Of a stretch of DNA of 64,000 nt, positions 4,684 to 63,918 are shown one piece after another. Each line of letters opens with the position of its first letter. Within the stretch, counting starts at the first letter, position 1. The notes beneath the pieces are model-generated. The model had not been told where the DNA came from. It worked only from the letters and a program-made list of their open reading frames with translations, and ran no database searches. Both the position numbers and the translations under genes were made by a program. Source of the stretch: Octopus vulgaris (Eukaryota); NCBI GenBank assembly GCA_951406725.2, contig OX597815.1:111786001-111850000 (forward strand). The letters run 5' to 3'.

Positions 4684-4833
4684 CAGTAAAAGCAATTAAG
4701 ATTCAAGTGAGTTCTGTTGAATTCACATGAATGCGGTACTTAACTTAAATGCACTAGAAATCTATATAGTATTAACCATAAGGTTATTCGGGGTGATTAT
4801 AAACAAGAAAAAAGCAACAAAAATGGATCAATA

Positions 4834-4923
4834 TTTCGGTACAATTGTTTCGTACGAAGACCACCTTTATTAAGGCTGCAAATATTGCAGCAAATACAAG
4901 TGACCCGTACTCATCAGCCGAAA
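4834..4923 (-). ncRNA. Type-I hammerhead ribozyme motif
   Basis: Reverse complement reads tttcgg-CTGATGA-GTACG[long extended stem II]CGTAC-GAAA-CAATTG-TA-ccgaaa: perfect core, 6-bp stem I, GUA cleavage triplet, palindromic CAATTG. Confidence 0.85.
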
Positions 4924-5724
4924 AAACATCTGAGTTGTCAAAACATCTAAGTGGGTGAGACTACACTCCTGAAACATTATGGATAGTTCTATAAAAATCA
5001 GATTTAGATAATAAACGGACTTCCAAAGTTCTTTAATCTTGCACAGTCATATAACAGGTTTTAAAAAAGTATTTTAAAAAACCTCTTAGTTTCACAGAAA
5101 ATGAAAATGTAAATCCATCCATAATGAAGTAGGTTTGAATTCTGGAGTTATGAGGAGAGATTTCATACTCACAGACGATGTATTTATCCATAATTAGTCC
5201 ATAATAAAGTGGGTTTCCTGATGTAAAACGATATACTAGTTGCATTTCTGATCATTTCTCAAAACTGCTATGTTAGAATTAGTTGAAGGAAAGTTAGTGG
5301 AGCGTAGAGACGATCACTCACATAGGGTATAATGGGGTAACTGAGAGTAGAAGAGGTTGTAAATATCCAACTACGCAGAATAGTTTATTTCAGTGGAGAC
5401 AAACTGACTGGGTCAGAATTTGCAAGAATCTAAGTGTTTTAAAGAGCAATGCTATTATTGACCAGTATACCGTTGTTGATTGCTATATAAAGAGGACACG
5501 GGAAGGTAAAGGCGGGACAAAGGTTGTCACTATAGGAAAAAACATTAACAAATTTCAGTGCAACACTAGAAAGGAGGTCATTTAATTTATTTCTTTATTT
5601 ATTAATGTTACTAATTTATTAATGGAAGTCCGTTTATTATGTAAATCTGATTTTTATAGAACTATCCCTGATGTTTCAGGAGTGTAGCCTCACCCCTTTA
5701 GATGTTTTGAGAACTCAGATGTTT

Positions 5725-5814
5725 TTTCGGCTGATGAGTACGGGTCACTTGTATTTGCTGCAATATTTGCAGCCTTAATAAAGGTGGTCTTCGTACGAAA
5801 CAATTGTATCGAAA
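5725..5814 (+). ncRNA. Type-I hammerhead ribozyme motif (inverted partner of 4834-4923)
   Basis: tttcgg-CTGATGA-GTACGggtcac...gtggtcttCGTAC-GAAA-CAATTG-TA-tcgaaa. Confidence 0.85.
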
Positions 5815-5842
5815 TATTCATCCATTTTTGTTGCTTTTTTCT

Positions 5843-5901
<59 letters not shown>

Positions 5902-17329: not shown

Positions 17330-19465
17330 TATTTTATTCCAGACGGATAGAAATATAGGGAAAAGTAAAAGTGGAAATTGTATTGAGAATAGTCAAAATA
17401 GTTTTTATTAAAATGTTTAAAGCTTTAACCGGTTTCACAGCTTACACAGTCTTGCTTCTGACTAGTGTTTGAAGCTTGCACTATTTTCATAGGGAGTTCA
17501 TGACTCAAATTAGGATTTCATTGTTAGAAGATAGTCACGTGACTGGTCTTAGAAATGTGTGTAGGGTCCCCACGTGTTAGTATCAATTAATGTTTGGCGT
17601 GGTAAGTTAATGCTGATACAGTTGACTGAAGATGTCAAAATGATCAATGCTCTGAAAGTTTTCTGTTAAATGTTTATAGACAATGAACACATGATAAAGT
17701 ATAACTCTTTTTACGTTTCCCGCTACGTCCGTGCGTTAATGTCACGTGACAGTGTATTTTGCGCCGAAAAGGAAAGCCGACACGTTCAAGGCATGTATTA
17801 AATTGTTCGTGTATCTGGGCTTGCATGTATTCCATGAACGTCCACAAATATCTACTAGAAAACTGGAAACGTGACTTAGATGACTGCCTAATCCTATGGA
17901 CGCATACATTTGAACAACTTACAGATTCTAAAAATCTAATCAACAGCATAACCAATGATATTAACGTTACCATGGAATATAGTAAAACTGAACTCCCATT
18001 CCTGGATATACTAATCATTAAAAGAGATTAAAACATTGAAATAGATATTCACTACAAACAGATTCGAAACAATGGTTACTGTTCTCCTCATGCCATCCCA
18101 AACACACGAAGAATAATATCCCCTTTAATCTAACAAGAGGAATTTGCACACCCTGACATTCGCAATAAATGGATCCAGGAGCTAAATTAAGTAGTACTTA
18201 AGAGATAATGTACATTAACGTTAATAGACAGCGGAACAGAACGTGCCAAAGCAATATATATCGAATAACTACGAAAAAGGAAAAACGCTTCAGATACATC
18301 CAATACTCTACCCTTTATTACAACACTCTACCCTTTATTGCAACACACAACACAGGGTTTACAATATTTACAATATTTTCTCACTACTAGAACAAGACTC
18401 AAGAATGCAACAAGCGTTCGAAATACACAAAATAACCAAAAGTAAAAGATAATCGAAGTCCTTCAAAAAGTTCTTTACAAGTGCTAAATTACATTCCACA
18501 ATTCCTACACCAACACTCAAAAAGTCTGACTGCACCAATTGCGGAACCTGCATTAACCATGTTGAAGACAAAACATCCAAATTCAAATCAGGACAGATGT
18601 TTACCGTAAAAGAATCACTTTACATATTCTTCAAGGAATTTAATATGCGCAAACAAATGTCAAGGATGTGATGAAGGTTACATAGGTCAAACGAATCTTA
18701 CTCTAAGTAGACTGACCATTCACTGACAACAAATACGGGACCCCAGTATAAGAGAGATTCCACTGGGTAGACACAGACATATGTGTAAAAAATAAGTCTC
18801 CCTAATTGTAAGACTTCTCACTCTAACTATCTTCAGCGTATACCACAGATGAAGCACAGATAAACAAAGAAAATACTTTCATGCAAAAGTACAAACCAAA
18901 ACTTAAACTTAGACTTAAACAGAGTACGTACACAAATAACAATTCACTCACAAATTTCATTCTGCTGCATATCATGAGGAACATTCACTGCTAACAACCT
19001 AAACTTTAGCCACTGGATTACATACAAACGACTCCTGGAACCCTCTCTCACAAGACATTAAATTTGGACTGTTTTAATTATAACGAAACATGTTCACTCA
19101 ACCGTGTCCGCTGTCTTTTTACGTGCAAAATATACTGTCACGTTACAGAAATGCACACATGTAGCGAGGAACGTACAATGAGTTACAAATTTAATGATGT
19201 GTTAATTCTATACTCACATTTGACAAAACATATTCGAGCATTGATTGATTGGACATGTTCACCTAACCATGTCAGCCTTAACTTACGACGCCAAACCTTG
19301 TAATTTGATAGTAACACACGGATGAAGCGGGGAACATATAAATAAATTCAAAGACCGGTCATGCGACTGAATTCTATCAATCAAATCCTTTTCAAAACAT
19401 ATGCTAATTTGAGCCATGAACTCCCAATCAAAATAGGGCAAGCTTCAAGCACTAGTCAGAATAAG
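17330..19465 (+). mobile_element. 5'-truncated Penelope-like element (RT C-half + GIY-YIG) with an inverted pseudo-LTR copy at its 5' end
   Basis: ENWKRDLDDCLILW...ELPFLDILI (ORF 17759-18031), LLFSSCHPKHTKNNIPFNL (~18075-18135), CTNCGTC (~18530), CQGCDEGYIGQT (~18660). 17455-17810 is the reverse complement of ~19075-19462. Confidence 0.85.
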
Positions 19466-19669: not shown

Positions 19670-20059
19670 AATATGAGAAAAGGTTGAGTTCCACTTCATC
19701 CTTCCCTTTGCGGGTTTCCAGAGTTAGATTTCTAGTAAAGATTCTTGGTAGATTACTATTCTAAGTATTTTTCGAATATGAAAATGTTTCAAGCATAAGG
19801 TGTGATATGAGTATATATAGAACACATATCCTATAGAAACACAACAAACAATAAAAGATGGAGAAAAGGTGTTAAGAGTTTTATAAAATATATAACATTT
19901 TTAGCAAATTTTCTTCTACATCTTTAATTGTTTGTTGAGATTCTATAGGTGTTAAGAGTTTTATAAAATATATAACATTTTTAGCAAATTTTCTTCTACA
20001 TCTTTAATTGTTTGTTGAGATTCTATAGGATACATGTTATATAAATGCTCATAACACAC

Positions 20060-20060
<1 letters not shown>
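19670..20060. repeat. Repeat family with internal inversion and an exact 80-bp tandem duplication
   Basis: 19867-19946 is duplicated at 19947-20026, and 19805-19866 is inverted at ~19990-20053. Same family as 45460-46045. Confidence 0.7.
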
Positions 20061-20091
<31 letters not shown>

Positions 20092-20202: not shown

Positions 20203-20576
20203 CCTCGCGTTGAGTTATTATTACATCGGAGGATCTACTAGCCAGGAAGCGTATATAACCAATATTTTACCTGTTTCAGTCCCTCAAATTGGGTTTTTAT
20301 TCGCATTCATAACAACACTTAGTTACTACCCATGAGCTATACAAGCAGTTTTCAGCATTTTGAACTTCGATATACAAACGGCCTTCGATATACAAACTTC
20401 GATGTTCAAACCCTAAGACCTAAAAGCGCTAATAAATTATTATTGCTTCTGTTTCTTATGCCCAGCATGGACTGATTGAAGCTTACAAAATTCCTACATA
20501 TAGATCTGCGGATTTTATAATTACACAGACACACAGACACACAGGCACACACATACATATACATACATATATATGT

Positions 20577-20611
<35 letters not shown>

Positions 20612-20612
<1 letters not shown>

Positions 20613-20629
20613 CATATTTGTAGACAGAT

Positions 20630-20677
<48 letters not shown>

Positions 20678-20695
20678 ATCTGTCTACAAATATGA
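20612..20695. repeat. Perfect palindrome: 20-bp unique arms around (AT)n
   Basis: tcatatttgtagacagatcc-(at)n-ggatctgtctacaaatatga. Confidence 0.9.
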
Positions 20696-20736
20696 GCACA
20701 TAGATATGTATGTGTGTTTGTATGTGTATATTAAAG

Positions 20737-20768
<32 letters not shown>

Positions 20769-20771
20769 CTG

Positions 20772-20802
<31 letters not shown>

Positions 20803-35058: not shown

Positions 35059-36314
35059 TGACAAAAATTATGGTACTGGAACAAAATATAATTTCACCCA
35101 ACATATTTGTTGGGTATCAAAATACGAATTTTTAAGTAACATCATATTTAGGCAATTATTTCGAGGTCCGTGTGGGAATTTGAAATACAGTGGTCGATAT
35201 GATGCGTGATTGTTGTATCTGCAGTTGTTACATTTGCACTAGGTCTGTGAAATGAATGGCCTCCTTACATCAGAAGTATACTAAATAATAGATTCTGAAG
35301 TGAATGAAGTTAAAACGAAATTAGAGATCAGTTCATAGACGCTGTCATTTTCCTATAATCTGAATAAATATTCATGATTATGAATTAACTCTATCTATAC
35401 AAAGGTGAAACTAGTCCCCCTACTCATATACTGGATTACGAACTACATTGGGTGAGATGGACATTCTGTCACTAATCAAGCGTTGATTTAAATTATACGA
35501 ATCTTATTTATTAATAGTTCCTACATATTTTTTATAATCATGTATGTGTGAAGAAAAACTTTGTCAGTAGAAACCAGCTACCAAATATAAAAATGGTGAT
35601 AAAAAGTCCCTAATGGTTAAATAAATATTTAAACATTTCAAATAACAGAATAAATTACAGTGTTTAATGAGGTGAGCCACACAGTATAAATTTGTTGTAA
35701 CATCAGATAGAATAGAGACGTGCACATAATTTGATTTAACTAATGCTGACTATCAAATAATGAACCTTTCGATTAGTATGCATGTGTAAATCGGGTGTTT
35801 TACTTCGTATTTCATAATGTTTATAGTAAACGTGCCACATCTAAGAACACGCTGCTTGAACATTTGCATTTCGTGTTTTCAATAAAAGAGATCACAGCAG
35901 AATAAAGGACTGAGTATACTATATAATTAAAGTCTACCTTCATTGCAAAAAATTGTGACCAACCCCAGCACCAAAAAATATTAAATATCACAAGATATAG
36001 TATTAAAATTAGCTTTCATAATAAAGATGAAAACATTAAGAAATCTAGACATAAAGTTCAAATCAAAAGAGAATTTGCGATTACTTTCTCACATACGTAT
36101 AAAGTAAAAATTTACACTCATATACACATATGTCTCTGAGTGTAAATGTACGTACGTATGTATGAGTGTACATAAATACAGTGTACATTTAAACACAAAA
36201 GAGGTATCCAACATAGGGCTACTTGCACGCTAGAGAGGACAGTTAAATTCCAAATCAATATGAAGGATAAAATTTCAAATGGAATGAAAAATAAAATCGT
36301 TTACTATCTAACTC

Positions 36315-36382
36315 CTGGACTAATGGTTTCAGACGTTTTTTAGCAAATAAAATAATTTGCTAGGCGACGCCTTCTTCAGCAA
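36315..36382 (-). ncRNA. Hammerhead ribozyme motif
   Basis: Reverse complement reads ttg-CTGAAGA-AGGCGT[tagcaaat hairpin]ACGTCT-GAAA-CCATTAG-TC-cag. Confidence 0.7.
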
Positions 36383-36493
36383 GTACACCTTAGATTAAAT
36401 ATATATATATACGAGGCAATCCAGTATATGCCCGCTGTTTATACATTCTAATTTTTCAAATCTAACACGCAAGCGCAACTCCTTGCCAGCAGT

Positions 36494-36609
36494 GGGGTCG
36501 ATAAATTAAGTACCAGTTACGCACTGGGGTCGATATAATCGAATTAATCCGTTTGTCTGTCCTTGTTTGTCCTCTCTGTGTTTAGCTCCTTGTGGGTAGT
36601 AAAGAAATA
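36494..36609 (+). mobile_element. 5'-truncated SINE tail inserted in the left palindrome arm
   Basis: ggggtcgataaattaagtaccagttacgcactggggtcgatataatc...aaagaaata is absent from the right arm and flanked by duplicated AGT (36491-36493, 36610-36612). Confidence 0.8.
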
Positions 36610-36868
36610 AGTAAATAAATATGCCAGCTTTTTCATTTCGAAAATTATCCAAGAAAAAAATTATCAATAATTATTAATATTAATTATTAATAATATTAAT
36701 TATTGATAAATATTTTCCTGGATAATTTTCGAAATGAAAAAGCCAGCATATTTATTTACTGCCGACAGGGATCTTCGCTTGCGCGGTAAATTGAAAAATT
36801 AGAATGTATAAGCACGGGGAATATACATGGATTGCCTCGTGTATATATATATTTAATCTAAGGTGTAG

Positions 36869-36936
36869 CTGCTGAAGAAGGCGTCGCCTAGCAAATTATT
36901 TTATTTGCTAAAAAATGTCTGAAACCATTGGTCCAG
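36869..36936 (+). ncRNA. Hammerhead ribozyme motif
   Basis: ctg-CTGAAGA-AGGCGT-cgcc-TAGCAAAT-tatttt-ATTTGCTA-aaaa-ATGTCT-GAAA-CCA.T.TGG-TC-cag, with a GUC triplet. Confidence 0.75.
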
Positions 36937-37093
36937 GAGTTAGAAGGTAATTGTTTTTATTGTTCATTCCATTCGAAATTTTATCCCTAATATTGGTTTG
37001 GAATTTAACTATCCTCTCTAGCATGCAAGGTTTTTACACGCTAGGCCTCTGGAAATGGAAATTTCTCATATTTCTGATTACCCTTTGATATTA

Positions 37094-37138
<45 letters not shown>

Positions 37139-55190: not shown

Positions 55191-55292
55191 TGTGTGTGTA
55201 TGTGCGTATGTGTGTGGGTGTGTGTGCTTGTTTGAGTTGAATAAAATTAAAACAGTCTGGTTTTCAGGGGTTTTTATCATGGTTTTTTAACA

Positions 55293-55330
55293 AAATTAGC
55301 GATTTCATACATTGTGCACTCATCAGATTT
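55293..55330 (-). ncRNA. Minimal hammerhead ribozyme motif
   Basis: Reverse complement reads aaat-CTGATGA-GTGCA-caa-TGTAT-GAAA-TCGC-TA-attt. Confidence 0.65.
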
Positions 55331-55754
55331 CAAATTTGTTTATCTGACAGTTGATTCCTTGACAACTTTAGTACCTCTTAGAACGCTCTAACCAGCTGAA
55401 GTTTTAGAATTGCTTTTTGATCTATATTAGAAAAGTCCGCTCTTCTAAATGTCTTCCAAATGACAACACAATTGTCATGAAACAAGCGGATAAAGGGGAT
55501 GCCATTATTATAATGGATACGTAATATTACCGGGATCAAGCGGAAGTCCATTTAAACGATACAACGGTCTACCTTGAAATACCCTCGAATATTGACCACC
55601 GGATCCTGAAGAAACTCAATTATTTCGTCTCAAAACATTATAACTACCTCCCCTCCAATGAAAAGAGACTATATTACCAATTCAGCTGGTTGATGCGTCT
55701 TATGAGGTTCTAAAGTTGTCAAGAACTCAATTGTCAGTTAAACACATCTGAAAT

Positions 55755-55792
55755 AAATCTGATGAGTACACTATGTATGAAAGCGCTAGTTT
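55755..55792 (+). ncRNA. Minimal hammerhead ribozyme motif
   Basis: aaat-CTGATGA-GTACA-cta-TGTAT-GAAA-GCGC-TA-gttt, with a palindromic GCGC stem III loop. Confidence 0.75.
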
Positions 55793-55885
55793 TCTTAAAA
55801 TACCATAATAAAAGACGTGAAAACCGGACTATGTTTTAACTTTATTCAACTGATATATCATTCCATGCACGTTCTACAAATTCGA

Positions 55886-59472: not shown

Positions 59473-59473
<1 letters not shown>

Positions 59474-59603
59474 TTTATTTAAGAGCAGCAGAAATTCAAC
59501 AAAACCTGTTACTCGGAGATTCACGTTCCCGTTCGTCGGACGAACGAAAACGTGATACTCCAAGTAACAGGTTTTGTTGAATTTATGGTGCTTTTAAATA
59601 TAG
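59473..59603. repeat. ~130-bp hairpin palindrome made of two head-to-head HHR-like halves
   Basis: aaattcaacaaaacctgttact / agtaacaggttttgttgaattt. The left arm reverse complement reads CCGACGA-ACG-ggaa-CGT-GAAT-CTCcGAG-TA-acag. Confidence 0.75.
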
Positions 59604-63577: not shown

Positions 63578-63918
63578 GAGTAAATAATTTCTATAAAGGC
63601 TTTTAAAAAAAACCAATTATTTACTGGTAGAATTCGGTATGTAAATATAGCCGATTACCGGCAGGAACTACTGTAAAGTTCAGTATATATATTGTATATA
63701 AGAAAAAGGGACAGGCAACAGGTTGCTTGACCGCATACCGAAAAAATAGAAATAGCAGTCAAGAATGCTTATTTCTATCAAAGTTGGACTCCGGGCACGA
63801 CAAACCCTGTAATTCACATATGCAAAACAGAAGGAATAGATAACGAAAACGAAGTCTGGTGGTTATCTGTGCCTGGAGTCCAACTTTGATAGAAATAAGC
63901 ATTCTTGACTGCTTTTTC

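Follow-up and report, generated by a model that had tools for sequence, protein, structure and literature searches.

A decayed head-to-head insertion of a hammerhead-bearing, probably retrozyme-like repeat in the Octopus vulgaris genome

In the present work, we trace a quasi-palindrome of the Octopus vulgaris genome to one old, decayed insertion of an abundant, non-coding 469-nt repeat. The palindrome lies in a stretch of 64,000 nucleotides (contig OX597815.1, positions 111,786,001 to 111,850,000), hereafter the window, whose own numbering is used throughout. With a probability of roughly 0.7, and judging from sequence, we consider that this high-copy repeat, which carries a type I hammerhead motif, is likely a non-LTR retrozyme and that the reverse transcriptase (RT)/GIY-YIG protein of a Penelope-like element (PLE), acting in trans, likely inserted it into a TA-rich microsatellite. 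As a locus, it is unremarkable debris, genuine but of a kind already known, and going by the accessible parts of the literature, the palindromic layout with twin hammerheads on opposite strands has already been published for PLEs. A pile-up of 5′ ends at the ribozyme, seen across the repeat family, is one addition of modest novelty.

Results and discussion

Extent and reality of the palindrome

An earlier note on this DNA had claimed a spacerless quasi-palindrome of ~800 bp at 36222 to 37029. Such a palindrome is present: the outer arms (36222-36423 and 36828-37029) are 92% complementary over 202 nt, the inner arms (36610-36684 and 36686-36760), separated by 1 nt, are 91% complementary over 75 nt, and BLAST self-comparison of the arms gave an E value of 4e-94. 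The limits have to be redrawn, however, since the true element runs from 36172 to 37101 and the earlier boundaries resulted from a 78-nt deletion in the right arm. Positions within the repeat are given in monomer numbering, in which two A/T-rich 3′ end sites stand out, A at ~384-396 and B at ~469-478; in the counts of outer ends below, they span 380-403 and 466-478, respectively. The features of the locus are as follows.

36172 to 36684, minus strand: left (inverted) arm with monomer positions ~1-382; its outer end lies at site A, and a SINE interrupts it
36308 to 36393, minus strand: type I hammerhead motif of the left arm, core intact (36379-36318), predicted cut at 36318
36494 to 36609, plus strand: 3′ half of a SINE, 116 nt, 5′-truncated, with AGT at 36491-36493 and 36610-36612
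36662 to 36709, no strand: head-to-head junction, almost purely A/T, centre at 36685, spanned by one contig of run X7
36686 to 37101, plus strand: right arm with monomer positions 1-333 plus 411-478; its outer end lies at site B, and (TA)n follows
36858 to 36943, plus strand: type I hammerhead motif of the right arm, CUGAAGA at 36872-36878, GAAA at 36921-36924, predicted cut after C36933
37030 to 37031, plus strand: deletion joint of the right arm, 78 nt lost (monomer 333-410) and site A removed, spanned by an X1 contig
37102 to 37135, no strand: (TA)n microsatellite adjoining the end at site B; the repeat family usually targets such sequence

At the joint between monomers lies the self-complementary sequence of site B, where both arms start. 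Aligned with each other, they show 37 scattered substitutions over the first 344 nt of the right arm and a single insertion of 116-119 nt, which is confined to the left arm. Homogenisation of the arms could be ruled out, as they differ by 11.1%, compared with 11.8% between loci. Contigs from four public runs (organisms A, A, B and C) cover the left flank into the arm as well as the arm/SINE junction, and one contig of run X7 spans the palindrome centre (36632-36753), all of these being pieces of the locus, with none reaching across the whole stretch. In organisms sharing the arm/SINE junction, 16 of 497 sites of the flank differ from the genome's sequence. Because the arms are 11% diverged and contigs run over the junctions, an assembly fold-back is excluded for practical purposes, and we agree with the earlier note that the palindrome is old and real.

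A family of inverted and solitary insertions with two end sites

The assembly (2.8 Gb, 227 contigs) was searched with the right arm and with another part of the unit, which returned 1,808 and 1,162 first-look candidates, respectively, 40 of each being scored. After removal of 8 duplicates from 97 fetched loci, 89 distinct loci, which represent the best-scoring matches rather than a random sample, were mapped on one natural copy as a ruler. The family unit is a monomer with a 469-nt period, arranged in head-to-tail partial tandems with tandem laps in many loci, i.e. the non-coding, head-to-tail monomer of a few hundred nucleotides by which retrozymes are recognised. Most outer (3′) ends fall at A or B (106 of 138, 53 at each site), and they mostly run into (TA)n-type repeats. 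An inverted, 5′-truncated arm joined head-to-head was found at 49 of the 89 loci, a lower bound given that about six of the ‘solo’ loci hold short inverted pieces; the other 40 were classed as single-armed. The family hence displays what is expected of PLE insertions: partial tandems, 5′ truncation, an adjacent inverted and 5′-truncated copy, two RT start sites, a tail at one end and AT-rich or microsatellite targets.

Solo copies end at A (18) about as often as at B (16). Where both ends of an inverted locus fall at a site, 23 of 24 loci are A/B mixed (p = 3e-6) and one is A/A, the remaining 25 of the 49 having been left out for at least one eroded end each; with the short-armed loci found later (L018 and L090, B/B; L056, A/B), the count becomes 24 of 27. 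The window locus has its left end at A and its right end at B. The same end rule is obeyed by the informative inverted copies (L155/L156 and L170) of a sister subfamily, an older set of 25 loci (L146-L170) that is ~75% identical.

That the locus should be a DNA-transposon MITE or an artefact of assembly appears extremely improbable. Either would account for the overall palindromic shape, and for that alone. A MITE sits badly with termini that differ from each other (A versus B) and with the lack of a target duplication at either end. Besides, 40 of the 89 loci are single-armed, junctions and lengths vary, and the hammerhead covaries between subfamilies; we therefore find neither the terminal repeats, nor the target duplications, nor the fixed structure of a MITE. 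An artefact, in turn, is contradicted by the arm divergence of 11% and by junctions that recur in independent runs.

Junctions, arm kinship and the route of insertion

Opposite arms of the same locus have 70 rare variants in common, against 12.6 expected from other loci (55 pairs), and tandem laps of the same locus have 24, against 6.7 expected (26 pairs). Position 187 is a G in both arms of the window locus, a variant present in 2 of 87 arm copies, and both also have a C, or a U derived from it, that pairs with G187 in stem II. Since these private stem II variants are common to both arms, the arms derive from one source template or from one homogeneous master array, in line with the earlier view of an old, RNA-derived palindrome with a single origin for both arms.

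The same note had asked whether other copies are palindromic around the same centre. They do not share it: centres vary, with junction offsets from -218 to +229, and the spacerless centre of the window locus is only the symmetric extreme of these variable junctions. Offsets within 30 nt occur at 13 of 49 loci, against 6.4 expected. In 13 of 24 informative inverted loci neither arm lies inside the other, by at least 40 nt in 10 of the 24, although a later asymmetric deletion at the palindrome centre could mimic such non-nested arms. At the window locus, the arms are nested and the offset is zero.

We envisage the following route. A PLE-type endonuclease would cut both target strands, and each target 3′ end would prime reverse transcription on the same RNA (a tandem transcript or a circle), one at A and the other at B, after which the two cDNAs would be joined at their 5′-truncated ends by short homology. 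At the window locus, both cDNAs would have halted at the self-complementary, A/T-rich site B, leaving a spacerless centre; the arms would then have decayed neutrally, by ~5.5% each, and the SINE would have landed in the left arm afterwards.

The earlier note had instead proposed fold-back reverse transcription of a ribozyme-cleaved RNA. Reverse transcription of a hammerhead-bearing RNA is retained here, yet fold-back at the cleaved end is not, as some 235 nt separate the cut from the centre, which lies upstream of it, at monomer position ~1. Without the ribozyme end, the model would have a target-primed cDNA reach the monomer joint, snap back on the self-complementary site B, self-prime the second strand and join the target end at A. 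We deem this version unlikely, though it deserves consideration: the zero offset, nested arms and self-complementary centre of the window locus fit it well, as do the private variants common to both arms and the excess of small junction offsets. Yet such an excess should also result from the accumulation of both arms at 229-270 (see below). Moreover, fold-back should give nested arms and, given that solo copies use A and B equally often, numerous A/A palindromes, of which only the one mentioned above was seen among the 24, and the 10 clearly non-nested arm pairs speak against it as well. Even a young PLE palindrome of this genome (L141, arms 99.98% identical) is already asymmetric by ~190 nt, and at the window locus the left arm holds positions 333-382 that are missing from the right one, so that the right-arm deletion must be later under fold-back. 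Priming from two target ends fits better because of the A/B end rule and the non-nested arms.

Two further ideas were considered and dropped. If arms primed at A tended to collide with site B, they should halt there; yet the A arms (12 stop, 17 pass) and the B arms (5 stop, 9 pass) showed no difference. Likewise, a common skipping of site A by B-primed arms was discarded, for no other site A deletion occurs among 183 projected segments, which makes the window locus a single case; a deletion like its 78-nt one was found in no other of the 89 loci.

The hammerhead motifs

As the earlier note had recognised, both arms contain the CUGAAGA...GAAA...GUC motif of a hammerhead with an extra hairpin in stem II. 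The core motif of the right arm spans 36872-36933 on the plus strand, with an extended stem II and one G-G mismatch in stem I, and its minimum-energy fold is a three-way junction in which an AGCAAAU/AUUUGCU hairpin lengthens stem II. In the minimum-energy fold of the left arm, stems I and II form and stem III does not, and there is a C-A mismatch at 36321. The fold z-scores of the two motifs are weak (-1.25 and -2.32), and an Rfam scan of the whole window at gathering thresholds returned no hammerhead or other match.

Across the family, 52 of 60 arm copies that were not chosen by the motif retain an intact core. Intact cores in decaying copies reflect the master and not selection on the copies, and the covariation of core and stem II between subfamilies is the better sequence evidence for a hammerhead. 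While the main subfamily has C3-G8, the sister subfamily, in which the core is covered in 19 loci, shows U-A at positions 3-8 in 8, U-G in 8, C-G in 1 and no pairing in 2 of the 19, counts that refer to sequences rather than events, as L155 and L156 look like one duplicated copy. Its stem II reads GAUUU/AAAUC in 14 of 19, versus G(G/A)CUU/AAGUC in the young subfamily, a paired change from C-G to U-A, and its stem III is a perfect palindrome. Core, three stems, fold and paired changes together identify a type I hammerhead motif in each monomer. U3-A8 is a PLE hammerhead variant on record, and hammerheads with a short palindromic stem III are thought to be active as tandem dimers, both according to the accessible part of one study (PMC4209133). 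The motif is spanned in two consecutive laps at six family loci (L006, L007, L015, L050, L063 and L066).

At the window locus, by contrast, the two motifs lie on opposite strands and hence do not form the same-strand consecutive pair that defines an ‘active’ retrozyme in the sense of Li et al. In the predicted fold of a read-through RNA, 84 and 82 of the 87 hammerhead bases pair with the other arm. Because of this opposite orientation, and because a single long hairpin is predicted for such an RNA, the twin hammerheads are unlikely to be a working pair, and the locus is likely inert as a ribozyme.

5′ ends accumulate at the ribozyme

What survives of the cleaved-RNA idea at the level of the family is a pile-up of 5′ ends at the ribozyme. 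With the window locus left out and the count restricted to stretches that the selection of loci had not fixed, 36 of 136 5′ ends map to monomer positions 229-270, which make up 9.4% of the positions at risk, and none of 1,000 simulated sets reached such a peak in any window of equal width. The predicted cut falls after position 236, and the 3′ strand of stem I occupies 237-246; six of the 5′ ends map at 229-234, some of them inside junction microhomology. The pile-up may stem from run-off at the end of a cut RNA or from stalling at the fold, since both fit. In vitro, the hammerhead of a PLE was dispensable and no RNA reads ended at the cut, as far as the accessible text of that study goes (PMC11167929). 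The public runs listed with matches to the element include no RNA record, and contig pieces of family copies in two runs guessed to be RNA are uninformative on transcription, strand, ends and editing. Our literature search, which stopped short of subscription journals, Repbase and supplements, found no report of a 5′-end pile-up at a PLE or retrozyme hammerhead.

Tentatively, the pile-up could mark hammerhead-cut RNA in the germline, with one circle or tandem copied from two fixed starts. The window locus would then be the limiting product, in which both polymerases halted at B and the B-primed one skipped an occupied site A, leaving the 78-nt deletion. We put this forward as a possibility that we would not bet on.

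A young SINE in the left arm

The insertion in the left arm is, as had been noted before, a later SINE: it constitutes the 3′ half of a young SINE of ~230 nt, matched at 40 other places with 87-99% identity, of which 39 reach 96-99%. Reading by eye, we found A- and B-box-like sequences in the heads of full copies, along with target duplications of 15-20 nt starting with (A)GT. The AGT duplication claimed for the window copy agrees with these starts; with its 3 bp, it would be weak if taken alone. In the copies read among L098-L109, the target duplications start (A)GT directly after the AAAGAAATA(A/G) end, which suggests priming by short homology, and in several copies an internal SINE piece follows. 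ARAGORN called no tRNA on SINE heads in three loci; near one SINE copy, at L099, it called tRNA-Phe (1838-1910) and tRNA-Asn (2720-2795).

The earlier suggestion that the SINE may have stabilised an otherwise cruciform-prone palindrome finds no support here. Against the majority sequence of the ten closest relatives scored, the insert has 1 difference over 116 sites (a value biased low), compared with ~5.5% in each arm. Hence, for most of its existence, the palindrome did without the insert. Besides, the insert sits 75 nt away from the spacerless centre, and the central 151 nt are still predicted to form a spacerless hairpin. Four other loci (L077, L093, L096 and L097) have kept near-symmetric centres with arms that join directly, and stabilisation by a SINE is therefore unnecessary.

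Penelope-like elements in the same genome

Intact RT and GIY-YIG ORFs of 769-775 aa exist elsewhere in the genome; the query used to find them was a decayed RT fragment from the window itself. The intact PLE found is far younger than the window insertion. Of four PLE loci compared with L140, three (L141, L142 and L145) inserted head-to-head into TA repeats and have a short end and a long one; the fourth, L143, is rearranged and hard to read. The PLE family of L140, L141 and L142 is a very young one, in which RT and GIY-YIG ORFs of 775 aa occur many times in near-identical form; L141 is a head-to-head palindrome of 3.9 kb with an asymmetric junction. In this young family, the pseudo-LTR (pLTR) contains a hammerhead-like motif of the minimal type, whose core reads CCGAAGA (in L143 and L145, CUGAAGA takes its place), and has a tail of 46 nt.

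These elements raise the question whether the 469-nt repeat is a solo pLTR of an autonomous PLE, in which case the window locus would be an ordinary, doubly 5′-truncated PLE insertion rather than a free retrozyme. The architecture is the same as that of PLE pLTRs, from which retrozymes have been proposed to derive in the accessible part of a recent report (10.64898/2026.07.22.740005). We nevertheless hold this to be improbable, as none of the 89 loci continues from the monomer into an ORF and the end of another monomer lies upstream instead. An RT/GIY-YIG ORF, as an autonomous PLE should have, is absent from the window element and from the joins at the 89 loci; the six frames of the monomer gave no Pfam match and many stops; and no homology to an autonomous PLE or its pLTR was detected among 36 PLE loci retrieved with one protein query. 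Two monomer matches at PLE loci (L113 and L137) turned out to be separate insertions and were rejected as a link to an ORF. A PLE-mobilised retrozyme hence remains our preferred reading.

The window holds further inverted structures. The decayed PLE RT fragment that served as the query, with a DKG motif, lies within an inverted pair of 81% (55235-55400 and 55681-55851) with minimal hammerhead motifs. An old inverted repeat of 72% (17456-17784 and 19103-19461) surrounds remnants of a frameshifted RT C-terminus and a GIY-YIG-like YIGQT, and is likely a third PLE relic in the window; Pfam returned nothing meaningful on the window's decayed PLE relics. A pair from a different family (4798-5025 and 5623-5850) carries hammerhead motifs on opposite strands (CUGAUGA, long branched stem II) that are 96% identical and enclose, head-to-head, ~600 nt of decayed sequence. 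Short self-complementary stretches of 71-85% were seen by self-comparison at 20533-20772, 59473-59603, 63749-63918 and 19795-20064.

Likeness to known systems

In the accessible parts of the sources compared here, metazoan non-LTR retrozymes (Cervera and de la Pena 2020, PMC7229834; Li, Clavereau and Pollet 2026, 10.64898/2026.07.22.740005) resemble the family in that their monomer is non-coding, low in GC and arranged head-to-tail, with a type I hammerhead whose stem III is short and near-palindromic, in the dispersal of monomers and dimers over the genome and in the co-occurrence of PLEs. The 469-nt monomer compares with 350-390 nt in mussel retrozymes and a vertebrate range of 51-972 nt. 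In contrast to retrozymes as described there, the family has an extra stem II hairpin, mostly 1-1.7 monomers per arm instead of long arrays, and head-to-head inversions, which make up over half of the examined loci and are undescribed for retrozymes in these sources.

With EN+ PLEs, going by what is accessible of three studies (Craig et al. 2021, PMC8557442; Frangieh et al. 2024, PMC11167929; Cervera and de la Pena 2014, PMC4209133), the family has in common the partial tandems, 5′ truncation, adjacent inverted and 5′-truncated copy, one-end tail, two RT start sites, AT-rich or microsatellite targets, opposite-strand hammerheads and the U3-A8 variant. PLE insertions are reported as 5′-truncated partial tandems that favour microsatellites and often have an inverted copy next to them as well as a tail at one of the two ends (PMC8557442, accessible part). 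The PLE protein, for its part, cuts and extends both strands, uses two internal RT start sites and is predicted to form a dimer (PMC11167929, accessible part), and schistosomes have dual hammerheads on opposite strands, 100-700 bp apart (PMC4209133, accessible part). The family differs from these elements by the absence of an ORF, by a full three-stem motif in place of a minimal hammerhead and by its tail, which at the window locus measures ~82 nt and exceeds the published 30-40 nt. All in all, the family appears to work like a PLE-mobilised non-LTR retrozyme, the sequence hallmarks of which it displays.

A comparison can also be drawn with LINE-1. Twin priming of LINE-1, reportedly proposed by Ostertag and Kazazian in 2001, is said to involve priming from two target ends that yields head-to-head, 5′-truncated cDNAs joined by microhomology; the inverted part reportedly copies a different stretch of the RNA, with a poly(A) tail and a target duplication present. 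In the octopus family, on the other hand, the two arms are copies of one and the same monomer, started at two internal sites that are fixed.

Literature searches outside subscription journals, Repbase and supplements, which may hold the family or its rules, did not find this family among octopus hammerhead repeats, nor palindromic or inverted retrozyme insertions. A search outside subscription journals for Penelope twin priming with inverted copies and a tail gave no relevant report.

Conclusions

How PLEs make inverted insertions has been called undefined (PMC8557442, accessible part). The octopus family provides countable footprints for this route and for the role of the hammerhead, and its A/B rule points to two-ended priming. 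By its insertion signature, the family supports the proposal that animal retrozymes ride on PLEs, of which they would be non-autonomous derivatives (10.64898/2026.07.22.740005, accessible part). If transcribed, the long inverted arms are predicted to form double-stranded RNA. And if the pile-up of 5′ ends does mark cut RNA, the ribozyme would act in these elements' life cycle even though it is dispensable in vitro.
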